Positions 48,902 through 64,000 of a stretch of 64,000 bases of DNA are shown one piece after another. The stretch spans positions 1 through 64,000 of IMG/VR virus record IMGVR_UViG_3300013947_000028. One strand, given 5' to 3'. Source of the stretch: a virus. Its lineage: Duplodnaviria > Caudoviricetes. The notes under the pieces were generated by a model. The model was not told where the DNA came from and ran no database searches. It worked only from the letters and a program-made list of their open reading frames with translations. The position numbers were made by a program, and so were the translations under genes. Position 1 is the first letter of the stretch, and every line of letters starts with the position of its first letter.

Positions 48902-49156
48902 ATGACAATAGAAGATATCATTAAGATAAAGGGAGAGTTAGATAATAAGCACTATATAGTATATAAATCAATAACTTTAAATAAAACATTTAAAGCAATA
49001 AAAACTTACACAATTGCTATATATAAAGAAGAAGAAGGGCAAACTAAGGAGGTATTTAGTGTGCAAAAGAACTCTCAAACAAATCCTGAAATATGGAATG
49101 AATTAGAAATAGCATTAGTAAAAGAAATTTTAAATGGAAGAGACTTTAATAAATAA
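48902..49156 (+). CDS. Hypothetical protein
   Basis: 84 aa ORF overlapping the TerL start. Confidence 0.5.
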   Translation: MTIEDIIKIKGELDNKHYIVYKSITLNKTFKAIKTYTIAIYKEEEGQTKEVFSVQKNSQTNPEIWNELEIALVKEILNGRDFNK

Positions 49157-51431
49157 ATTAACAGAGGATACAATAATACCTACAAATAAATATCAAACAC
49201 CTATTACTGAGGAACTACTGAAGCCTTATCCTAAAGAAGTACAGGAACAGTTTTTAGATTTTGTAAATAATGTGCCTTATATTAAATACATGATAGGATG
49301 TACTAGACAAAGAGCCTGTGATTTACCTAAAGATAAAAAGGGGAGAATTATAGTAGATATTACTCAGCCTCATATACTTGAAGATATGGATTATTTTAGA
49401 CCTGCTGCTATTAACTTTAAAAAAACAGGCAGATATACTAATCTTAGGCCTAATCCAAACCCAAACAGTGAATACGGAAAATGGGTAAGAGAAGAAATAA
49501 GAAGGTGCTATGAAGGGTATGTAAGAAAATCTGACGGAGAATGGGTAACAGGTAATATGTATTTCTTTTTAAATTATTGTCCTATACCTATGACTAAGGT
49601 GACAGGTAATAATAGAAAAGGTGAACGTGTAGTAGATTTTCCAGAGTTTTGGGAAGGAATATATTATAGATTTCATTATATAGAACAAGCTCAGTTTGGG
49701 GGATTATTTGATGAACAAGGGGGTAATAATGGATGTGAAATATCCAGCCGCGGAAAAAGCAAGTCCTTAACTATGGCAGCTATTATGGCTAAATATTTTG
49801 TATTAGGTGAATCTAAAGATGTTTGTAAAAATGTTAAGTGTATGGCTACAGCTTATCAGAAACAATATCTTACATCAGATGGAATTTTAAATAAGTTTCA
49901 GTCATACATTGATTTTTTAGCTCAAAATACACAATGGCCATCGAAAAGATTAAAATCTAGTTTGCAGGATATGTCATGGAAAATGGGTTATTATGACCTA
50001 GATACAGGTACACAAAAAGGTACATTAAATGAAGTAATGGGAGTCTCTGCTAAAGATGATCCCTCAAAAGTGAGAGGTAAACGTTTACATTTTATCATAG
50101 TTGAAGAGTTTGGTTCTTTTAGAAATGTGCTTGAATTATATAATATTATGTTGCCCTCTATCCAAGAAGGCAATGTTTCTTTTGGTACAGCATATTTAAT
50201 TGGTACATCAGGTGACTCAGAATCAGACTTTCAAGGGGCAGCAGAGATTGTATATAATCCTAAAGGCTATAGAATGTATGCATTACCTAATGTATGGGAT
50301 AAAGAAGGGCAAGGTAAAAAGTTTTTAACTTTCTTTTTTCCTGGTTTTATTAATAGAAAATTATGCTATGATCATAATGGAAACAGTGATGTAGTTAAAG
50401 CATTGTTAGAAATACTTTCAGATAGATTTAGAATTAAATATAATTCAAGTGATATTAATTCTATTACAAAAGCAATAGCTGAAATTCCAATAACCCCACA
50501 AGAGGCAATATTAAGAACAAAGGGTAACATATTTCCTATTACAGAATTGAACAATAGATTAAATGAAATAGACAATAATCCTTCATTTTATGATCAAACT
50601 TATGTGGGAGATTTAGAGCTAAATAACAAAGGAGAGGTAGAATTTATATCTACTAATGATAAACCTATTAGGGAGTTCCCATTAAAAGATAATACAGCTA
50701 AAGGTGCAATAGAAATATTTGAAATGCCTATTAAAGTTAATGATAAAATACCCAATGAACGATATATTTTATCCCTTGATAATTATGAAAATGATCAAGC
50801 ACAATCTATGTCTTTAGGTAGTCTTTTAGTATTAGATTTGTGGACAGATAGAATAGTTGCAGAATATACAGGTAGACCAATGTTTTCAGATGATTTAAAT
50901 GAAATTGCTAGAAAAATGTGTTTATTCTATAATGGTAAAGTAATGGTAGAAAATAATAAAAAAAGTACATTTGCTTACTTTAGTAGAATGAATAGCTTAC
51001 ATTTAATGGCAGATTGTCCTGAATATCTTAAACAAAAACAAATTATTAAATACAGCACTTTTGGTAATAGTAGTAAAGGCATTACAGGGACTCCTGCTGT
51101 ATTTAACTTTGCTTATACTTTAATAAGAGATTGGCTACTAAAACCTGTTACTATAACTAAAGAAGAGGAAGGAGAAACAATAGAATACACTGTACCTAAT
51201 CTTCACTTTATTAATAACAGAGCTTTACTTAAAGAGTTAATACTTTATAACCCTGATATAAATGTGGACAGATTAAAATCACTATGTCAGTTAATGTTAT
51301 ATAGAGAAGAGAAGATGATTCTTTATCAAAATAATATAAGCAATGCCCAACATAGAGATGATTCTAAGGACTTAAGTAATGACCCCTTCTTTAAAGATAA
51401 CTATGATAATAAAGATTCAATATGGGTATAA
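49134..51431 (+). CDS. terL: Terminase large subunit
   Basis: G.MYFFLNY; SRGKSKS Walker A; VRGKR..IVEEFG Walker B; GTSG; VAEYTGRP; ENN; N.DR. Confidence 0.9.
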   Translation: MEETLINKLTEDTIIPTNKYQTPITEELLKPYPKEVQEQFLDFVNNVPYIKYMIGCTRQRACDLPKDKKGRIIVDITQPHILEDMDYFRPAAINFKKTGRYTNLRPNPNPNSEYGKWVREEIRRCYEGYVRKSDGEWVTGNMYFFLNYCPIPMTKVTGNNRKGERVVDFPEFWEGIYYRFHYIEQAQFGGLFDEQGGNNGCEISSRGKSKSLTMAAIMAKYFVLGESKDVCKNVKCMATAYQKQYLTSDGILNKFQSYIDFLAQNTQWPSKRLKSSLQDMSWKMGYYDLDTGTQKGTLNEVMGVSAKDDPSKVRGKRLHFIIVEEFGSFRNVLELYNIMLPSIQEGNVSFGTAYLIGTSGDSESDFQGAAEIVYNPKGYRMYALPNVWDKEGQGKKFLTFFFPGFINRKLCYDHNGNSDVVKALLEILSDRFRIKYNSSDINSITKAIAEIPITPQEAILRTKGNIFPITELNNRLNEIDNNPSFYDQTYVGDLELNNKGEVEFISTNDKPIREFPLKDNTAKGAIEIFEMPIKVNDKIPNERYILSLDNYENDQAQSMSLGSLLVLDLWTDRIVAEYTGRPMFSDDLNEIARKMCLFYNGKVMVENNKKSTFAYFSRMNSLHLMADCPEYLKQKQIIKYSTFGNSSKGITGTPAVFNFAYTLIRDWLLKPVTITKEEEGETIEYTVPNLHFINNRALLKELILYNPDINVDRLKSLCQLMLYREEKMILYQNNISNAQHRDDSKDLSNDPFFKDNYDNKDSIWV

Positions 51432-51505: not shown

Positions 51506-53923
51506 ATGAGTGAATTTGTACAATTCCCTCCGCAACAATTGTCTTTTACTAAAAAGACTAAAGCATGGAGGAAAACTGTACTGGATTGGGCAGACACTAA
51601 ATCATTTACTCATTATTCACCTGTAAGAAAAAGTGTTCTACATAAAAAGATTAACTATGATTTAGTTAATGGAATATTACATATGAAGGATTTAGCTCAG
51701 ATTATAAATCCTGAATCATTAAAAGCTAAATATATTCCAGAAAGAATACAGCATTTTCCTATAGTTAACAGTAAATTAAATGTGTTAATAGGTGAAGAGT
51801 TAGGAAGAGTTTTTGATTATAAAGTAGTTGTTACTAACCCTAATGCAGTATCAGAAATAGAAGAGAATAAGAAACAGCAAATTCTTCAACAAATACAACA
51901 AGAGATAGAAAACCAATCACAATCACAAGAGGAATTCCAACAGAAGTTAAATAAAATGAATGAGTATTTCACTTATGATTGGCAAGATATGAGAGAGCAA
52001 AGAGCTAATTATTTACTTAATCATTATGTTAAAGAATATAATATGCCACTCATCTTTAATAAAGGATTTACTGATGGTCTTATTGTTGGAGAAGAGATTT
52101 ATAGATGTGATATTAGAGGAGGAGAGCCTATTATTGAAAGACTTAATCCTAATAAAGTGTACGTCTTCAAATCAGGATACTCTAATAGGATAGAAGATGC
52201 TGATGTTATAGTTATTGAAGATTATTTATCTCCAGGTCAAATAGTTGATAGATATTATGATAGTCTTACTGCTAAAGACAGGGATTATATTGAAAAACTT
52301 CCTTACAGTAATTCTTCAACACAAGGAGACGAAGAAGAACCTAGAAATGCATGGATTTCTTCAGATTTAGTGGGAGATGACGACCATAACTTTTTCTCTA
52401 GTATGTTGGAGTTTACTGATGGTAATACTACTGCTATTGATACTCCTTTTGATATGTATGGTAATATAAGAGTATTACAGGTATATTGGAAGTCAAGAAG
52501 GAAGATTAAAAAGGTAAAGTCATATAACCAAGAAACAGGAGAAGAAGAATTTAATTTCTATCCTGAAAACTATGTATGTGATGAAGCTAAAGGTGAGGAG
52601 GAAATAACTTTTTGGATTAACGAGGCTTGGGAAGGTACTAAGATAGGTAAGGATATTTATGTTAACATGAGACCTAGAATAGTACAATACAATAGACTTT
52701 CAAATCCTTCAAGATGTCACTTTGGAATTGTAGGTTCTATCTATAATCTTAATGAAGATAAACCATTCTCTTTAGTAGATATTATGAAGCCTTTTAATTA
52801 TTTGTATGATGCAATACATGACAAATTAATTAGGCTTATGTCAAGAGATTGGGGTATTCTTCTTCCTGTAGATTTAGCTAAAGTTCCTGACCATTGGGAT
52901 ATAGATAAATGGTTATACTTTGCTAAAGCTAATGGTATTGTTGTTACAGATAGCTTTAAGGAAGGTAATAAAGGTGCTGCTACAGGTAAGTTATCAGGTG
53001 CTCTTAATAATGCTTCTAGTGGTGCTATTAATGCTGAATTAGGTAATTCTATCCAAGCTTATATTAGCATGCTTGAATATATTAAATCAGAAATGTCTGA
53101 TGTTGTAGGTATTAATAAGCAAAGAGAAGGTCAAGTAGCTAACAGAGAAACTGTAGGAGGTGTAGAAAGAGCAACTTTACAATCTTCTTACATTACTGAA
53201 TATCTCTTTAATACACATGAGGATGTTAAAAGAAGAGCATTAGAGTGTTTCTTAGAAACAGCCAAAGCAGCTCTTAAAGGAACTAATAAAAAGTTTCAAT
53301 ATATTCTCCCTGATGGAGCATCTAAAATTATCAATATTGAAGGTGATGATTTTGCAGAAAATGATTATGGATTAGTAGTAGACAGCAGTAAAGGTACTCA
53401 AGAACTTAACCAGAAATTGGATACTCTTGCACAAGCTGCACTACAAAATCAATCTCTTAATTTCTCTACTATTATGAAACTTTATAGTAGTGCTTCTATG
53501 GCTGAGAAAGAAAGAATGATTTCTTATAATGAACAGCAATTACAAGAGCAGCAACAGCAGATGCAACAGCAACAACAACAATTACAGCAACAGCAAATAG
53601 AACAGCAAGCTCAAACTGTTCAAGCTAAGATGGAACAAGATTATAAGATTGCTCAAGAAAAGAATCAAACTTCTATTGTTGTTGCTCAAATTAATGCGCA
53701 AGCAGAAGCTCAAAGATACGCTATGATGAATCAAGATAACGATGGAGTACAAGAGCCTATTTTTAGTGAGGAGGCAAGAGCTAAACTAAATGAATCTATT
53801 AGACAATTTGATGCTAAATTACAATTAGATAAAGATAAATTAGCATTAGATAAAACAAAGGCTAATAGAGATTATGATATAAAGAAAAAACAATTACAAA
53901 AACAAAAGGCTACAGCAAAATGA
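51506..53923 (+). CDS. Portal protein
   Basis: Follows TerL; PPQQL, NYDL.NG, L.GEE, WINEAWEG and QREGQ motifs; Q-rich C-terminal coiled coil typical of crAss portals. Confidence 0.85.
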   Translation: MSEFVQFPPQQLSFTKKTKAWRKTVLDWADTKSFTHYSPVRKSVLHKKINYDLVNGILHMKDLAQIINPESLKAKYIPERIQHFPIVNSKLNVLIGEELGRVFDYKVVVTNPNAVSEIEENKKQQILQQIQQEIENQSQSQEEFQQKLNKMNEYFTYDWQDMREQRANYLLNHYVKEYNMPLIFNKGFTDGLIVGEEIYRCDIRGGEPIIERLNPNKVYVFKSGYSNRIEDADVIVIEDYLSPGQIVDRYYDSLTAKDRDYIEKLPYSNSSTQGDEEEPRNAWISSDLVGDDDHNFFSSMLEFTDGNTTAIDTPFDMYGNIRVLQVYWKSRRKIKKVKSYNQETGEEEFNFYPENYVCDEAKGEEEITFWINEAWEGTKIGKDIYVNMRPRIVQYNRLSNPSRCHFGIVGSIYNLNEDKPFSLVDIMKPFNYLYDAIHDKLIRLMSRDWGILLPVDLAKVPDHWDIDKWLYFAKANGIVVTDSFKEGNKGAATGKLSGALNNASSGAINAELGNSIQAYISMLEYIKSEMSDVVGINKQREGQVANRETVGGVERATLQSSYITEYLFNTHEDVKRRALECFLETAKAALKGTNKKFQYILPDGASKIINIEGDDFAENDYGLVVDSSKGTQELNQKLDTLAQAALQNQSLNFSTIMKLYSSASMAEKERMISYNEQQLQEQQQQMQQQQQQLQQQQIEQQAQTVQAKMEQDYKIAQEKNQTSIVVAQINAQAEAQRYAMMNQDNDGVQEPIFSEEARAKLNESIRQFDAKLQLDKDKLALDKTKANRDYDIKKKQLQKQKATAK

Positions 53924-57760: not shown

Positions 57761-58897
57761 ATGGGATTAACAATAACAGGTAATAAAATAACAGGAGGAG
57801 CTAAAGCTAAAGTAGTTGACTCTCTTCCTGATAAAGGAAGTTCAAATTCTATATATTTAATTCCTAATAAAACTACAGGAGATAATAAATATGATGAGTA
57901 TATTTGGATTAAAGATACTGAACATCCTGAAGGATATTTTGAAAAAGTAGGACAAAGAGATATTGATTTAGAGCCTTATGCTACAAAAGAGTATGTGGAT
58001 GGTAATTTCTTTAAAGCATCTTTTAACAGTGACTTTGTTGACACATTAAAGCCTATACGTGATAATAATATTCTAACTATTCTTGGTGACAGTGTAAGTC
58101 TTAAAGACAACTTAGTTGTTACAGATACTGAAATTTCTTGTTATGCACCCTTAAATATAGGAAGTGCACAAATAAAATCTGTTGATAATGAGGGGATAGC
58201 AATAAATCCTAGAAATAATCCTAACGAATCTTTATTTATAAGTATAAGTAGCATAAGTACAGACCTATATCCTTCTTACTACGTTGGTAATGAGCTAGAG
58301 TTATATAATGATACAACTAAATTTACTTTTTGCAGTGATGTAGGATTTAAATACAGTGTAAATATAAGCACTTTCGGAATAAAATATAATAATGACCCAT
58401 TATGTAATTTGTCAACATACACTACAATTTATACTTACACTCATGATGGACAGTTAGGTGAAGTATACATATCATCACATGTAGATGAATTATTAGACAA
58501 TAAAGTAGACAAAGTTGAAGGAAAAGGATTAAGCAGTAATGATTTTACTGATACTCAAAAAACACAATTAGAATCATTACATGATAGTGCTAAAACCTCT
58601 ATAGATACTCCAGTTGTTTCTACTGATACCATAAAAACAACTTTTCATTCTTTAGGACATACAGCAGCAACTACTATTACTTACCCAGCAGCAACTACTA
58701 CTACAGCAGGTGTAATGAGTGCTTCTGATAAAGTAAAAGTTGATAGTATTGATATACTTGCAGGTACTATAAATCACGTAACTGATACTATTAGTTCTTC
58801 TTATTATTCTAAAACAGATGTTGATAAAAAGTTAGCTACTTTGGAAACTCAAATAAAAGATTTAACTAATAGAATTACAGCACTTGAAACTAAATAA
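57761..58897 (+). CDS. Tail/capsid fibre protein
   Basis: VVDSLP..G..NSIYL...YDEYIW; KVDKVEGKGLSSNDFT; AATTTTAGVMSASDK. Confidence 0.7.
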   Translation: MGLTITGNKITGGAKAKVVDSLPDKGSSNSIYLIPNKTTGDNKYDEYIWIKDTEHPEGYFEKVGQRDIDLEPYATKEYVDGNFFKASFNSDFVDTLKPIRDNNILTILGDSVSLKDNLVVTDTEISCYAPLNIGSAQIKSVDNEGIAINPRNNPNESLFISISSISTDLYPSYYVGNELELYNDTTKFTFCSDVGFKYSVNISTFGIKYNNDPLCNLSTYTTIYTYTHDGQLGEVYISSHVDELLDNKVDKVEGKGLSSNDFTDTQKTQLESLHDSAKTSIDTPVVSTDTIKTTFHSLGHTAATTITYPAATTTTAGVMSASDKVKVDSIDILAGTINHVTDTISSSYYSKTDVDKKLATLETQIKDLTNRITALETK

Positions 58898-58920
58898 TAT
58901 TTATTTAAACTTATAATAAC

Positions 58921-59040
58921 ATGGGAATTAAAATTAAAGGCAGACCACAACCTATTACTCCTAAAGCAGGTATTACTCATGGTAAGTATGCCCAAGGAGG
59001 TAAGTTAAAGAAGAGAGGTAAGAAATCTAAGAAATGCTAG
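58921..59040 (+). CDS. 39-aa basic peptide with a YAQGGKL motif (not in track)
   Basis: MGIKIKGRPQPITPKAGITHGKYAQGGKLKKRGKKSKKC; fills the gap before ATG 59042. Confidence 0.65.
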   Translation: MGIKIKGRPQPITPKAGITHGKYAQGGKLKKRGKKSKKC

Positions 59041-59041
59041 T

Positions 59042-59452
59042 ATGAGTAATAAAATATTATATAAAATATTTCTGATAGCTTTAAAATACATTCCTGCTAT
59101 TATTACAATATTTTATATATTGAATACTTTTCTATCCTTTATTGGTATAGATACTTTTTGGATGAGCTATTGTTCAGGAGTATCTATACTGACTTGGGTC
59201 TTCCTGTACATATCTAGTTTCGTATTCAGATATTGTATTTATCATAGATTATTTCTATATTATATAGCTTTAAATGATGCTATAACAATAACAGATTATC
59301 ATTATAAAATACCCATTTCAAATGAAGCATTGTTTATGATACACAGTGTTTTATTAGGAATATTTATTGTATTAATTGTAATTAAATATGTTACAAATCA
59401 TAAAAAGAATACTACTAAAAATAGTAGACAATATAGATTCAGGAAATTCTAA
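59042..59452 (+). CDS. Multi-TM membrane protein
   Basis: Four hydrophobic segments; F.YC.YHR motif. Confidence 0.6.
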   Translation: MSNKILYKIFLIALKYIPAIITIFYILNTFLSFIGIDTFWMSYCSGVSILTWVFLYISSFVFRYCIYHRLFLYYIALNDAITITDYHYKIPISNEALFMIHSVLLGIFIVLIVIKYVTNHKKNTTKNSRQYRFRKF

Positions 59453-59696
59453 TATGACAGCCTCAGATCAATTAAAGGTAATGAGAGCTTTACAAGAATA
59501 TACTGACAAAGAGGTTAGGCTTAGTAAATATCAAGCATGTAGATATGTAGGTTTAAGTAGGGCTTCTTTCGATAATTATGTTAGATTTGGCTCTTTACCA
59601 AAGGGCTTAAAACAACAAGGTTTTAAGGAATTATTTTGGACAAAGAAATCATTAGATGAATTCCTTAAACTTAGAGAATCTAAAAAGAAAAAGTAG
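59388..59696 (+). CDS. Excisionase/AlpA-like HTH protein
   Basis: LSKYQAC.Y.GLSRASFDNYV..G.LPKG...W. Confidence 0.7.
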   Translation: MLQIIKRILLKIVDNIDSGNSNMTASDQLKVMRALQEYTDKEVRLSKYQACRYVGLSRASFDNYVRFGSLPKGLKQQGFKELFWTKKSLDEFLKLRESKKKK

Positions 59697-59700
59697 ATTT

Positions 59701-60093
59701 ATGAAATATTTTTACATATTATTGACTTTACTTCTTTGTATTAGTTGTAAAACTAAATATCAATACATAGAAGTACCGAAAGAAACTGTTAAAGTAGAGT
59801 ATAAAGATAAACTGATTCATGATAGTATTTATAATATAGATAGTATTTACATTAAAGAAAAGGGAGATACTGTTTATCATTATCAGACTAAACTTCAGTA
59901 TAAGTATAAGTATATTAGGGATACTATTTATAATAAAGATACTATTAAAGTTACTGCAGTTAAACCTGTAGAAGTAACTAAAGAAATAGTTACCAATAAA
60001 ATTAAATTGCATCAGAAAATCTTTATATGGTTAGGAGGAGTATTTGTGTTATTTATAATATATAAATTAACAAAATACATTAAGAGAGAATGA
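59701..60093 (+). CDS. Lipoprotein with a C-terminal TM (unimolecular spanin-like)
   Basis: MKYFYILLTLLLCISC lipobox-like signal; HDSIY/RDTI beta repeats; C-terminal TM. Confidence 0.65.
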   Translation: MKYFYILLTLLLCISCKTKYQYIEVPKETVKVEYKDKLIHDSIYNIDSIYIKEKGDTVYHYQTKLQYKYKYIRDTIYNKDTIKVTAVKPVEVTKEIVTNKIKLHQKIFIWLGGVFVLFIIYKLTKYIKRE

Positions 60094-60410
60094 TTGATTT
60101 AGGTGTAATAGTTACAGCTTTAGTAGGAGTTTTAACAAGTGGTGCTACAAGCTGGATTACTTGGTTTATTACTAAAAAGAAATATAATGCAGAAGTTGAT
60201 GGAGCATTGTTAGATAATATGAAAGAATCACTTAATTTTTATAAAGAATTAAGTGAAGATAACAAAAGAAGACTGGAAGATGTCTTAGATAGAAATAAAC
60301 AATTAGAAAAAGAAGTTTCAGATTTAAGACGTCAAGTTACAGCAATGCTTAGTACAATATGTACAGATTTAACTTGTATGCACAGAATAAGTAAAAATTT
60401 AGAAGATTAA
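60090..60410 (+). CDS. Holin/antiholin-like protein (N-terminal TM plus coiled coil)
   Basis: TM helix followed by a coiled coil ending C...C. Confidence 0.5.
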   Translation: MIDLGVIVTALVGVLTSGATSWITWFITKKKYNAEVDGALLDNMKESLNFYKELSEDNKRRLEDVLDRNKQLEKEVSDLRRQVTAMLSTICTDLTCMHRISKNLED

Positions 60411-60414
60411 AGAT

Positions 60415-60906
60415 ATGGCAGAAAAAAAAAGAATTGGTACACTTAAGGGTAGACCTATTGTTGAAATAGAAGAAGGCAAAGAGTTCCTTCAAACTAAAAA
60501 TGAATTAAGATTTAATAGTAATACTGGTACTTTATCATCTAATACTGGGGATTTCACCGCTGATTCAGTGACTAATAAAATGCGTGAAATTTTTATGAAC
60601 TATATAGATTATGCAGCAGATCCTGATTCTGCATTTTGTAGTGTAATATCTGATGAAGTTATTAGTTTTATTAAAAAACACGCTATTAAATGTTGGCCAT
60701 CAGGCAGCATAGGTTATGCTACATATGGTAATATAAATAAAATAGCTCCCTATTTTGCAACTTATAGGGAAGACCTTGCCCCAGGCACTTATTATTTATG
60801 TGGATGGAATGAGGGCTGTCAACTAGCGGTTATAAAAATTATCCCAAATGATAATGGTGGCTATAAAATAGCAGGAAGGGGCAAATATTTTAATTTTTGG
60901 TTTTAA
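60415..60906 (+). CDS. Hypothetical protein
   Basis: 163 aa ORF; IGTLKGRPIVE N-terminus. Confidence 0.5.
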   Translation: MAEKKRIGTLKGRPIVEIEEGKEFLQTKNELRFNSNTGTLSSNTGDFTADSVTNKMREIFMNYIDYAADPDSAFCSVISDEVISFIKKHAIKCWPSGSIGYATYGNINKIAPYFATYREDLAPGTYYLCGWNEGCQLAVIKIIPNDNGGYKIAGRGKYFNFWF

Positions 60907-61385
60907 TGAAAATAATTGTAGATAGAAAATATAAGAAAGCAACTTATACAATAAGTAATCTTACTATAGATGGTAAATGGTTTTGTAATGTTGTAGAGGA
61001 TACCGATAGAAACTTAGATAACACTATGTCTTCCTCTCATATACAAAAAGTTAAAGATGTTAATGGTAATGGCATAAATGATGATGCTATTACAGCAATA
61101 CCTAGAGGAACATACAAAGTCACACTTAATGTAGTTTCTCCTAAATTTAATAAGAAGGATTACTATAAAAAGTTTTGTAATGGTAAGGTTCCTCGATTAC
61201 TTAATGTACCAGGTTTTGATGGTATCCTAATGCATTGTGGTTCTACAGCTAAAAGTAGTGCAGGATGTTTAATTTTAGGTTATAATAAAATTAAAGGTGG
61301 TGTAGTTGATTCACAAAAAGCTTTTGAAGCAGTGTATAAAGAATTACTAAAGGATAAAGATAATATTACAATTGAAATAAAATAA
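60906..61385 (+). CDS. DUF5675-type putative endolysin
   Basis: YTI..L, TAIP.GTY, PRLLNVPGFDGILMH.G and SAGCLILG motifs. Confidence 0.8.
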   Translation: MKIIVDRKYKKATYTISNLTIDGKWFCNVVEDTDRNLDNTMSSSHIQKVKDVNGNGINDDAITAIPRGTYKVTLNVVSPKFNKKDYYKKFCNGKVPRLLNVPGFDGILMHCGSTAKSSAGCLILGYNKIKGGVVDSQKAFEAVYKELLKDKDNITIEIK

Positions 61386-61433
61386 TAGCATTTTACTGCT
61401 ATAGTTTTTCTAGTGTTTTCATAATGTTTGGTG

Positions 61434-61479
61434 AAGGAGTAGTAACATTAGTTGCTGCTCCTTTTTGTATGTATTTTTG
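61434..61479 (+). terminator. Terminator followed by a TATTTTTG promoter box (61472-61479)
   Basis: AAGGAGTAGTAAC/GTTGCTGCTCCTT stem plus T-run. Confidence 0.65.
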
Positions 61480-61531
61480 TGATGTAAGCTTACAAATTTA
61501 TTTAATGTTTAACTTTTAAATAGATAAAGTT

Positions 61532-62440
61532 ATGTCAGAAGAAGCAACTAAAACTTATGTGTTTGGACAAGATAGTAACAGTTTATTATCTATGTTAGCC
61601 CCATTATGTCAGCAAAGAGGTGTTGACCCTAATGTACTTTTAGCAATGAAAGATAAAAATAACTTTGGTGAAGGTGGCTTTCTGTGGGTTATCTTCCTCT
61701 TCTTCCTCATGGGTTGGGGTGGTTATGGTAATGGATTTGGCTTTGGTGGTAGAACTGGTGAAGGTCTTGCTAATCAAATTAATAATGATTATGGTAGAGA
61801 CTTACTCCTTCAAGCAATTAATGGCAACGGCAATGCTATTAGCCAACTTGCCACTACTCTTAATTGTGATATTAATGCTGTACAAGGTGCTATTAATGCA
61901 GTAAATAACAATGTAAGTAATGTAGGTAATCAAGTGGGTATGACAGGTCAGCAAATTGTTAACTCTATTCAAAGTGGTAATCAGCAGATTGCTGCTCAGT
62001 TAGCACAGTGCTGCTGCAATACTCAGCAGAGTATCCTTAAAATGGGATATGATAATCAAATAGCTACTTTAAATCAGACTAATCAATTAGGAAGTAAAGT
62101 TGAAGGAGGTACATCACAAGTAACTAATGCTATTGCTAACCAGACAGCCCTTATTAATGATAAGTTCTGTCAACTTGAAATGAGAGATATGCAGGCTAAG
62201 ATTAATCAATTACAAGAGGAAAAGAGTACCTTACAGAATCATATTAGTAATGCTAATCAAACCTCTCAAATTCAAAGCTATATAGCAAGTGTAGTTAACC
62301 CTATTGCACAGGAAGTAAATGCAATTAAATGTGCTCAACCTAATACAGTAACAGTTCCTTATCAACCTTTTGTAACAGTTCCTAACTGTGCAGCTTATCA
62401 ATTAGGATTAGTTAATAACAATCAGAATCTTTGGTTTTAA
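61532..62440 (+). CDS. Membrane-associated Q/N-rich coiled-coil protein with a CCC motif
   Basis: FLWVIFLFFLMGWGG..GFGFGG followed by a heptad-like region and AQCCC. Confidence 0.7.
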   Translation: MSEEATKTYVFGQDSNSLLSMLAPLCQQRGVDPNVLLAMKDKNNFGEGGFLWVIFLFFLMGWGGYGNGFGFGGRTGEGLANQINNDYGRDLLLQAINGNGNAISQLATTLNCDINAVQGAINAVNNNVSNVGNQVGMTGQQIVNSIQSGNQQIAAQLAQCCCNTQQSILKMGYDNQIATLNQTNQLGSKVEGGTSQVTNAIANQTALINDKFCQLEMRDMQAKINQLQEEKSTLQNHISNANQTSQIQSYIASVVNPIAQEVNAIKCAQPNTVTVPYQPFVTVPNCAAYQLGLVNNNQNLWF

Positions 62441-62454
62441 GAAAGGAGGTAGTT

Positions 62455-62778
62455 ATGGCTATTAGTATAAGATATCTCAGTAATATAAATGGTATTCCCA
62501 GATTAGAATCTAATAGTGTAAATGTTAATAGCACTAATGTAACATTTGCTTTTACTAATCCAGGAGTAAGATTTAACACTGAATATAATGGGTTAATATT
62601 GCTAAAGTTTAATCAATCTATACCTACAGGAACTACTGATACATTACCTATAATGATAAATAATCAGGCAGTTACTACCTATAATAATGCAGCTTTAACA
62701 GTTGCTAATTTTAAAGGGACTGGTATATATTTAGCATACTATGATAGTAGTACTAAAGTACTGCAAATCATTGAGTAA
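62455..62778 (+). CDS. Small beta-rich hypothetical protein
   Basis: Start ATG 62455, preceded by AAAGGAGGT. Confidence 0.65.
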   Translation: MAISIRYLSNINGIPRLESNSVNVNSTNVTFAFTNPGVRFNTEYNGLILLKFNQSIPTGTTDTLPIMINNQAVTTYNNAALTVANFKGTGIYLAYYDSSTKVLQIIE

Positions 62779-62811
62779 TATACACTTTTATAATTTTAAA
62801 ACTACTAGGTT

Positions 62812-63336
62812 ATGTTTCAATCATTAAGACAAAATAGTCCTATCTATATCTTTCATAAAATAGATACTCCTTATTTAGAAGTAGGCTCAGTATACTCTAC
62901 TAGTTTACCTAAACCTAAATATGCAGTTCCTGCTACTTTTACAAATACTCAAGAAATGTGTGTAGACATAGTAGTTAAAGTTGGTAATACTTCAATTAAC
63001 TATAATAATCTTCCTGCTAATCTTGATATAGCTGACAGTACTAGTAATGGTGATAATATAGTTATAGCATCTAGTAAAGAAGCAATGAACGCTGAAATAT
63101 TAAGTTTAAAACAAAAGAGTATTGATGAATTAAATAGAAGAGAATATAATGAGAATATAGTGAAGAACTGTGATAAAATATTATCAGAATTAAATCCTGA
63201 ATTTGCAGAGAAACAAGCTCAAAAAGCTGAAATAGATTCTTTAAAACAGCAAATGCAAGAGATGTCTAAAAATATGCAAAGTCTTATTGATATGAATAGA
63301 CAATTAATGAAACAAGTACCTACTAATAAAGAATAA
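62812..63336 (+). CDS. Hypothetical protein with a C-terminal coiled coil
   Basis: 174 aa ORF. Confidence 0.65.
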   Translation: MFQSLRQNSPIYIFHKIDTPYLEVGSVYSTSLPKPKYAVPATFTNTQEMCVDIVVKVGNTSINYNNLPANLDIADSTSNGDNIVIASSKEAMNAEILSLKQKSIDELNRREYNENIVKNCDKILSELNPEFAEKQAQKAEIDSLKQQMQEMSKNMQSLIDMNRQLMKQVPTNKE

Positions 63337-63340
63337 TATT

Positions 63341-63547
63341 ATGAGACTTTGGGAATTAAGAGAAGGTATGGAATCAAGAGATTCCTATCCTAGAAAAAGA
63401 AGAGATGATGATTATGGTTACTCTACCAAAGGTAGAAGTAGATATGATGAAGATGATGAGGATTGTGATGATTATGAAGAAGGATATAAAGCTGGCTATA
63501 AGGCAGCTAAAAGAAAATACTCTCACATGACAGAAGATAGATATTAA
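63341..63547 (+). CDS. Small D/E/R/Y-rich disordered protein
   Basis: YEEGYKAGYKAA motif. Confidence 0.6.
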   Translation: MRLWELREGMESRDSYPRKRRDDDYGYSTKGRSRYDEDDEDCDDYEEGYKAGYKAAKRKYSHMTEDRY

Positions 63548-63558
63548 TTATTAACTAT

Positions 63559-63582
63559 AAGGGAGTAGTAATACTCCCTTTT
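63559..63582 (+). terminator. Terminator-like hairpin
   Basis: AAGGGAGTA-GTAA-TACTCCCTT followed by TT. Confidence 0.6.
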
Positions 63583-63597
63583 ATTATTTATAAAGAT

Positions 63598-64000
63598 ATG
63601 AGATTAGATATGTATGATAAATTACCATCAGGAATGAAAGAATACATTAGTTATTATGGTTGGCATTTTAATAAAAAAATGTGTGAGTTTGCTTGTAATA
63701 ATATGTATAAAATTGATGATACAGGACATAAAGAATATATACAACCTTATACTAAAGAACAAATTGATTCTCTTTTAAAATCGTATAATATTAATTTACA
63801 TGATTCTACTTATGATTATGTGTACATAGCTAATATGTGTAAAGCAGATTTTTATGGTTCTTCTATAACAGATGAGCATAAACTATGCTTATATATTAAA
63901 GATGTTATTGATGATAAAGATTCATATGAAGGAATGATTTTTACTAGATTTTATGCTGATTGTATAGGTAGTGGAACTCCTATTTACTGGGAAGATTTTC
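63598..64000 (+). CDS. Hypothetical helical protein (YGWHF...YIANM.KADF...DD.D..EG..F.RFYAD); runs off the window
   Basis: ATG at 63598; open to the end of the window. Confidence 0.7.
   Translation, partial: MRLDMYDKLPSGMKEYISYYGWHFNKKMCEFACNNMYKIDDTGHKEYIQPYTKEQIDSLLKSYNINLHDSTYDYVYIANMCKADFYGSSITDEHKLCLYIKDVIDDKDSYEGMIFTRFYADCIGSGTPIYWEDF

Follow-up and report, generated by a model that had tools for sequence, protein, structure and literature searches.

What are the five small genes that separate the endolysin gene from the capsid region in the viral genome IMGVR_UViG_3300013947_000028, and where do their products act? The window analysed here is the first 64 kb of this 101,701-bp Steigviridae-like crAss phage genome, whose capsid protein is 56–58% identical to the Steigviridae capsids of cr112_1, cr106_1, cr116_1, IAS virus and PhiCrAssBcn1. 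An initial annotation described the genes, here called g1 to g5, as a self-contained, membrane-acting operon led by a fusion-peptide-like coiled-coil protein. They are the local version, lacking the gene for a small HExxH protein, of a widespread accessory cassette that has its own promoter and recurs among unrelated gut Bacteroidales phages. Inserted like a moron between the endolysin gene and the genes of a gp31 homologue and the capsid, the cassette appears to stand apart from the conserved machinery of virion or lysis. For its products we consider a membrane-anchored stalk-and-head assembly made in the infected cell, to which we give a probability of roughly 40%.

The five open reading frames (ORFs) are co-directional on the plus strand, at 61532–64005, and are accompanied by several signals:

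61433–61471, plus strand: terminator-like hairpin, with a stem at 61433–61464 of 14 pairs (5 of them G-C), a loop of 4 and a T-rich tail
61472–61479, plus strand: Bacteroides-type −7 box TATTTTTG (TAnnTTTG), 60 nt upstream of the g1 start
61483–61494, no strand: perfect 12-bp palindrome TGTAAGCTTACA, 3 nt downstream of the −7 box
61532–62440, plus strand: g1, 302 residues, phrog_16490 at an E-value of 1e-52
62443–62449, plus strand: strong Shine-Dalgarno (SD) sequence AAGGAGG, 5 nt upstream of the g2 ATG
62455–62778, plus strand: g2, 107 residues, phrog_31654; the ATG lies behind the SD sequence (a TTG at 62431 would give 115 residues)
62812–63336, plus strand: g3, 174 residues, phrog_28898 at an E-value of 6e-54
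63341–63547, plus strand: g4, 68 residues, rich in D/E/R/K/Y, with a short conserved helix EAYE-GYE-GY-KAM
63559–63589, plus strand: terminator-like hairpin between g4 and g5, with a 9-bp stem at 63559–63580 and a T-rich tail
63598–64005, plus strand: g5, 135 residues, DUF7841, phrog_38431, ending 5 nt past the window

All five genes are under purifying selection. Against two close relatives, in which g1 is 92–94% identical, the ratio of nonsynonymous to synonymous substitution rates (dN/dS) is 0.06–0.07 for g1, 0.09–0.12 for g2, 0.13 for g3, 0.34–0.36 for g4 and 0.13–0.24 for g5, with the capsid gene at 0.05–0.08. The g1 family comprises at least 7,285 matches among 90%-identity clusters and at least 861 clusters at 50% identity, nearly all of about 300 residues. 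From a phage collection, IMG/VR and genome contigs, 113 g1 loci were gathered, and hidden Markov models (HMMs) built in iterations served to label their ORFs. A g2 gene is present in 100 of these loci, g3 in 103, g5 in 100 and the small HExxH protein in 83, and the order is almost always g1-g2-g3-g4-g5-HExxH. This neighbourhood search bears out the statement, in the initial annotation, that similar gene runs occur in other gut phages: the genes do co-occur elsewhere, and none of them maps to a known virion part. The selection, the thousands of homologues and the kept order establish the five plus-strand genes as real and already refute the idea that they are chance ORFs or decaying remnants without function; nothing beyond missing annotation speaks for that idea, and its probability is negligible.

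Carriers of the cassette include members of two or more crAss-like families (Steigviridae cr116_1; Suoliviridae cr273_1 and cr52_1), non-crAss contigs of 45–170 kb, and the cultured B. uniformis phage C3_41T2LP with its relatives. In the isolate genomes of Parabacteroides segnis and P. leei, it stands on contigs that also bear integrase genes. A near-identity DNA search of the phage collection gave no match.

The insertion is best seen by comparison with PhiCrAss001, in which gp31 and the capsid gene gp32 come straight after the endolysin gene gp30. HMM profile searches of its genome (MH675552) found no homologue of g1, g5 or the helix-turn-helix (HTH) gene described below. The subfamily of PhiCrAss001 also includes cr116_1, which carries the cassette, the cr116_1 group lacking g5; most of the closest capsid relatives are missing from the g1 tblastn matches. 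The order in the present genome is endolysin, cassette, gp31 homologue. Since gp30 and gp31 adjoin in PhiCrAss001, which has no cassette, the block is a moron-like insertion; flanking direct repeats that could be an insertion scar were not found. The same junction in cr112_1 (MT774388, 2985–4659) holds genes for an HExxH protein of 211 residues, a 125-residue protein and a 216-residue protein, without g1-g3. The 216-residue protein consists of a charged g4-like stretch N-terminal of a DUF7841 domain. The endolysin/gp31 junction thus appears to be a hot spot. On account of this partial form, g4, g5 and the HExxH gene constitute a sub-module able to exist without g1-g3, a division that fits the position of the hairpin between g4 and g5.

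Examples of phage morons are lambda bor/lom and the HK97-type insertions reportedly defined by Juhala et al. (2000). The cassette resembles them in forming a block between genes that are adjacent in related phages, with a preceding terminator and a host-type promoter. It differs in having five to six genes instead of one, an operator-like palindrome and often an adjoining small HTH gene; it also occurs in virulent crAss-like phages as well as in prophages, and no downstream terminator was found here.

How would such a block be expressed? A promoter following a terminator had been proposed in the initial annotation, and the hairpin at 61433–61464 is indeed followed by the TAnnTTTG box where the annotated operon begins, so that at motif level the cassette has a promoter of its own. 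The hairpin would insulate it from the upstream endolysin gene. Among 71 non-identical loci, a terminator-like site lies at most 220 nt upstream of g1 in 31; in 44 of 71 loci the TAnnTTTG motif stands between −120 and +30 of g1, concentrated at −45 to −75, against an expectation of 0.10 per 150 nt. The palindrome TGTAAGCTTACA, present as a single copy in the 101.7-kb genome even when one mismatch is allowed, probably serves as an operator covering the transcription start. Most loci with an HTH102-type gene have at this place an identical or related TGT-N6-ACA palindrome whose centre varies with the lineage. This HTH-gene family is present in 48 of the 113 loci, mostly adjoining g1, and stands directly upstream of g1 in many crAss-like relatives. 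In several further lineages, the gene immediately 5′ of g1 encodes another small HTH-like protein, DnaA-domain-IV-like as read by eye, and the inverted repeats there are different ones. Taken together, these features are those of a regulated moron. A search of Rfam gave no match.

Within the cassette, expression is unlikely to be even. Of 114 ORFs in the genome, only g2 and the gp31 homologue have a strong SD site in front of them, and across loci such a site stands before g2 in 23 of 72, compared with 0–3 loci for g1, g3, g5 and the HExxH gene. The hairpin at 63559–63580 is a probable attenuator, and 10 of 54 loci, spread over several lineages, have a comparable hairpin between g3 and g5. The space between it and g5 is too small for a promoter, and g5 therefore probably relies on read-through. 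The description as a self-contained five-gene operon thus stands as regards the five genes and their promoter; it fails in that the internal hairpin implies a unit that is not uniformly transcribed, and in that this unit normally has six genes. Terminator-like sites are found at 4 of 70 g1/g2 junctions, 4 of 65 g2/g3 junctions and 3′ of the HExxH gene in 23 of 50 loci; none was seen 3′ of g5 in the present genome. Six such sites lie in the interval 58800–64000, against 1.0 expected from shuffles.

The first protein, g1, begins with about 48 conserved residues comprising a KTYVF-type strand and a helix-loop-helix that weakly mimics a TAL repeat. TAL-effector matches were dismissed, being nine sub-threshold repeat matches to a helix-loop-helix of 30 residues. 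A Gly/Asn-rich stretch, a Trp-capped short hydrophobic helix and Gly/aromatic repeats follow, then N/Q-rich heptads with two helix-turn-helix units of the ‘AIxGNxxAIxxLA’ type and a near-invariant CCC cluster (160–162). The Gly/aromatic hydrophobic segment and the CCC motif of the initial annotation are thus both present. The C-terminal half is a single long helix (151–268, about 118 residues) ending in a Pro/Cys/Gly/aromatic tail without a hydrophobic stretch. No lipobox is present in g1. Longer fused forms of g1 were looked for and none found, which is weak evidence.

The g1 profile is colinear with residues 5–90 of influenza HA2, which span the fusion peptide and first helices, at marginal E-values of 0.0045–0.04 (best 19 bits), and it matches heptad repeat 1 (HR1) of coronavirus S2 at likewise marginal values of 0.009–0.04. 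These scores may reflect composition, and they probably explain the ‘spike protein/glycoprotein’ labels in GenBank records. In its linear order of a Gly/aromatic hydrophobic peptide, amide-rich heptads, a Cys cluster and a second long helix, g1 resembles such class I fusion subunits, from which it differs by 48 extra residues before the hydrophobic peptide and the lack of both a C-terminal membrane anchor and a receptor subunit; the phage, moreover, is non-enveloped. The AlphaFold2 model of g1 (predicted local distance difference test score, pLDDT, 71), searched against BFVD, with PDB Foldseek and VIA-wide, matched only one unnamed viral protein and generic coiled coils.

Two further observations concern the g1 group. 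The g1 frame is broken by an in-frame stop codon in 32 loci (23 TGA, 9 TAG; loci L009–L062) and continues in the same frame, which is consistent with the stop-codon recoding that occurs in crAss-like and other gut phages. Phage BF486P2 (OP172667, 2049–6632) encodes a 156-residue protein with a 20-residue hydrophobic segment (counted by eye), a g1-like helical motif and a CCGCG...GCGCGG tail. It lies four genes upstream of a DUF7841 gene, after which come a Phage_holin_4_1 holin, an M15 endolysin and a spanin-like protein. This set may be a reduced cassette beside lysis genes, and its putative g1 analogue supports membrane anchoring in this protein group.

The most divergent member is g2, with a median pairwise identity of 0.28 versus 0.47 for g1, and it is also the most variable in length (113–197 residues elsewhere). 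Its profile found no match in the PDB and none in Pfam. Short, Cys-poor g2 proteins pair with an aromatic g1 tail ending in ‘...FWG’, and long, Cys-bearing ones with a g1 tail of the form ‘PCPxPAY...NPNCC...GCGC’. Over 21 non-redundant cassettes, the Cys counts of the g1 tail and of g2 are correlated with a Spearman rho of 0.85. This co-variation suggests that the g1 tail directly contacts g2.

The initial annotation had taken g3 for a coiled-coil protein. Its AlphaFold2 model (pLDDT 82.5) retains a helical hairpin (89–167), which is preceded by a small SH3/KOW-like beta barrel (10–86). The best fold matches from PDB Foldseek and the VIA-wide search are to EF-P domain I, with Z-scores of 6.5–7.0 over 58–60 residues, below the trust level. 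The charged peptide expected at g4 is there, and in other lineages g4 has an R/G/Y-rich tail. In a ‘g5-g1-g2’ lineage, g5 comes first and bears a fused C-terminal g4-like tail rich in D/E/R/Y; proteins that fuse a g4-like stretch to g5 link the two genes. The match of g5 to DUF7841 (PF25223) scores 103.9 bits with a cut-off of 25.2, and all 27 aligned homologues match. The conserved His and Asp residues that had been noted in g5 proved half right: several Asp residues (D84, D106 and D108) are near-invariant and no His is. The protein also has a conserved acidic motif. The g5 family also occurs without g1-g3 in cr112_1, B. fragilis phages and Parabacteroides phages. The gene for the small HExxH protein, usually 3′ of g5, is absent from this genome and two close relatives. 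The Pfam PolyVal model was not reached by this protein at an E-value of 0.01, and the PolyVal name is a GenBank annotation only. On reading the sequences, no signal peptide or lipobox was visible in g2-g5.

Annotation searches of the cassette proteins with Pfam, PHROGs, NCBIfam and PADLOC returned only unnamed PHROGs and DUF7841, and the ESM Atlas gave only unnamed viral clusters, without structures, for g5 and g2. Weak matches to Isy1, Elf4, MreC, PqiB, LeoA and JetC were dismissed as coiled-coil noise. The PADLOC hits to LmuB, JetC and LeoA have E-values of 6e-4 to 0.07 and are of this type, PqiB reaches 14.8 bits where the cut-off is 525, and the matches listed for the g3 barrel include no MCE chain. 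PDB searches with single sequences and profiles of g1, g2, g3 and g5 retrieved no phage virion protein, the profile matches being limited to generic coiled coils, HA2 and TAL-repeat-like proteins. A literature search on DUF7841, PF25223, C3_41T2LP and crAss morons, exclusion or lysis cassettes found nothing relevant. The cassette therefore appears to match no known virion, lysis or defence system. Every defining feature tested of spanins, class I fusion proteins, the crassvirus virion, PADLOC systems and MCE proteins is either absent or indecisive.

How might the products work together? In the membrane-anchored stalk-and-head assembly, g1 would oligomerize through its long N/Q-rich coiled coil and be knotted at the CCC cluster. 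Its short, Trp-capped hydrophobic helix, which may be an interfacial or re-entrant anchor instead of a standard transmembrane helix, would fix it at or within the cytoplasmic membrane. The C-terminal tail of g1 would bear g2, a fast-evolving, probably beta-rich protein that would be abundantly translated, and g3, with its SH3-like barrel and helical hairpin, would attach to the stalk. The argument for this stoichiometry is that, among the cassette genes, g2 alone has a strong SD sequence. Behind the attenuator, g4, g5 and, where present, the HExxH protein would be made in fewer copies and serve in assembly or maturation. The structure as a whole probably faces the cytoplasm, because g2-g5 show no export signal and g2 appears to contact the g1 tail. 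As for its role, our guess is an envelope-level accessory function, such as hindering the entry of competing phages or late envelope remodelling.

Several points weigh against this proposal. The hydrophobic core of g1 (positions 50–63) has a median length of about 11 residues, below the usual transmembrane length, with a median 19-residue Kyte-Doolittle maximum of 1.48 and neither Lys nor Arg at its flanks; true membrane spanning by g1 is accordingly doubtful. The ‘fusion-peptide-like’ label has marginal sequence support, from the HA2 alignment. The many conserved Cys residues would be more at home in an oxidizing compartment or a virion than in the cytoplasm. A lysis or virion role would agree equally well with the place of the cassette among late/structural genes, frequently just behind lysis genes. 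The co-variation of the g1 tail with g2 amounts essentially to two subtypes and hence few independent events. The pairing of HTH gene and palindrome may be a correlation only, and cr112_1 has the HTH gene without g1-g3 and without such a palindrome. Finally, it is from sequence that we infer both location and function, and this holds equally for membrane action of any kind, be it exclusion, a filament or fusion; the interpretation put forward in the initial annotation is to this extent only partly supported.

Weighing the alternatives requires the genes around the cassette:

49134–51431, plus strand: large terminase
51506–53923, plus strand: portal
59042–61385, plus strand: lysis region, six genes from a membrane protein through to the endolysin
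59042–59452, plus strand: hydrophobic membrane protein, 136 residues, four transmembrane segments by eye, weak match to phrog_13405 ‘membrane protein’
59388–59696, plus strand: small HTH-like protein, 102 residues, possible cassette regulator
59656–60093: lipoprotein of 145 residues with lipobox LLLCISC and a C-terminal hydrophobic segment
60090–60410: protein with a hydrophobic segment plus coiled coil
60415–60906: protein of 163 residues in the PhiCrAss001 gp29 position, between the holin-like gene and the endolysin

Fibre-like genes on the plus strand lie between the portal and the lysis region. The last gene of the lysis region, directly upstream of the cassette, encodes a DUF5675 L,D-carboxypeptidase-type endolysin. 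The 136-residue membrane protein accompanies the HTH gene in every locus where it was detected, and whether it belongs to the cassette is uncertain. The 145-residue lipoprotein is u-spanin-like by its layout as read by eye; it sits between the HTH gene and the gene at 60090–60410, and has homologues in 14 fetched loci. The 163-residue protein has no detectable similarity to gp29 and no family match. On the 3′ side, just past the window, the cassette is followed by a 403-residue acidic protein (the gp31 homologue) and then the major capsid protein. The gp31-homologue gene has its own −7 box, TAATTTTG (genome region 64073–64127). After this box, a perfect 12-nt inverted repeat, TGCACTAAAATT / AATTTTAGTGCA, with its arms 24 nt apart, flanks the strong SD sequence and start codon of the gene; the repeat may control translation or transcription of the gp31-homologue and capsid genes.

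The cassette could instead be a virion add-on, with g1 as an accessory fibre shaft or as a pilot/ejection protein whose hydrophobic peptide enters the host envelope at infection, g2 as a variable tip, g3 as an adaptor, and g4, g5 and the HExxH protein as chaperones and maturation protease. The logic of a stalk with a variable head, the co-variation between g2, which is the most variable gene, and the tail of g1, as well as the place of the cassette among late/structural genes, would all suit this, and short hydrophobic peptides are typical of penetration proteins. The conserved Cys residues agree with the disulfide-rich PhiCrAss001 virion (PMC10172136). The phiX174 H pilot protein and podovirus ejection proteins share with g1 a length of about 300 residues, a hydrophobic segment close to the N-terminal end and a long coiled coil rich in amides. 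The likeness of g1 to reovirus sigma1 and phiX174 H is that of generic coiled coils, with Z-scores of 7.4–7.7 that are not above background; the VIA value for phiX174 H, 7.6 over 126 residues, is no higher than that of dozens of unrelated coiled coils. What favours a host-cell-directed function tells against the add-on: the same cassette with a kept g1 N-terminus is portable across unrelated virion types, which is hard to square with a specific docking site; a terminator shields it from the late genes, and it has a promoter of its own with an operator; it is missing from the genome and virion of PhiCrAss001 and from most of its relatives; and no solved virion protein is similar. We therefore regard a virion add-on as unlikely. 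A particular form of this idea took g2 for a head fibre. The head fibres of PhiCrAss001 are formed by gp21 and gp29 (PMC10172136), small accessory proteins encoded, like the cassette, near lysis/capsid genes, and g2 is about the size of gp29; PhiCrAss001, however, has no g1 or g5 profile matches, and the protein at the gp29 position here is dissimilar. The identification of g2 with gp29 was dropped for lack of support, as the g2 profile found no phage protein in the PDB either, although g2 and gp29 were never compared directly.

A lysis or release accessory, in which g1 would be a fusogenic, spanin-like or T4-T-like holin/antiholin protein acting late in infection and g2-g5 cytoplasmic timing factors, is a still weaker candidate. 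The cassette does recur beside holin, endolysin or spanin genes (in this genome, cr116_1, Dulem virus 40, the P. segnis prophage and loci L077, L113 and L061), and in BF486P2 the g5 gene directly precedes the Phage_holin_4_1 gene. Spanins are membrane fusogens, and g1 shares with Rz/Rz1 and T1 gp11 a hydrophobic segment followed by coiled coils and Cys, besides its marginal class I fusion likeness. Its hydrophobic helix, however, is internal and short, which matches neither the signal anchor of i-spanins nor the lipobox layout of u-spanins, and no lipoprotein partner is visible on reading g2-g5. The lysis set moreover appears complete already, with the u-spanin-like lipoprotein (59656–60093), the hydrophobic-segment-plus-coiled-coil protein and the endolysin; a terminator divides the cassette from these genes, PhiCrAss001 lyses without it, and in the C3_41T2LP group the genes before it are those of recombination instead of lysis. 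Very unlikely is a module for host takeover or counter-defence in the cytoplasm, or an effector set free at lysis; its active pair would be g5 and the HExxH protein, with g1-g3 as a delivery device or scaffold. In its favour, cr112_1 has g5 with a charged g4-like extension and the HExxH protein without g1-g3 at the same junction, the annotators of C3_41T2LP call the HExxH protein PolyVal-like, and the cassette is regulated, portable and confined to one host lineage; against it, PADLOC, Pfam and NCBIfam give no support, the HExxH gene is dispensable here, and the membrane-like segment and long stalk of g1 would be left unexplained. The boldest possibility, also improbable, is an undescribed phage membrane machine. 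In it, g1 would be class-I-fusion-like, the HExxH partner would remove the 48-residue N-terminal piece, the Trp-capped peptide would then enter the host membrane and the variable g2 head would give target specificity, making a portable module for entry exclusion, envelope fusion or release.

The human gut virome is dominated by crAss-like and other Bacteroidales phages, most of whose accessory genes are uncharacterized. Among these genes, the cassette is very common and strongly constrained; it is found across phage families and lifestyles, has regulatory signals of its own and is unlike any system described. The cultured phage C3_41T2LP of B. uniformis and the two cultured Parabacteroides strains with integrase-bearing contigs offer experimental access to it. 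Its role, once worked out, would annotate thousands of phage genomes together, and could reveal a new phage action on the Bacteroidales envelope. If the membrane machine were to prove true, it would be a module used by many of the most abundant phages of the human gut.

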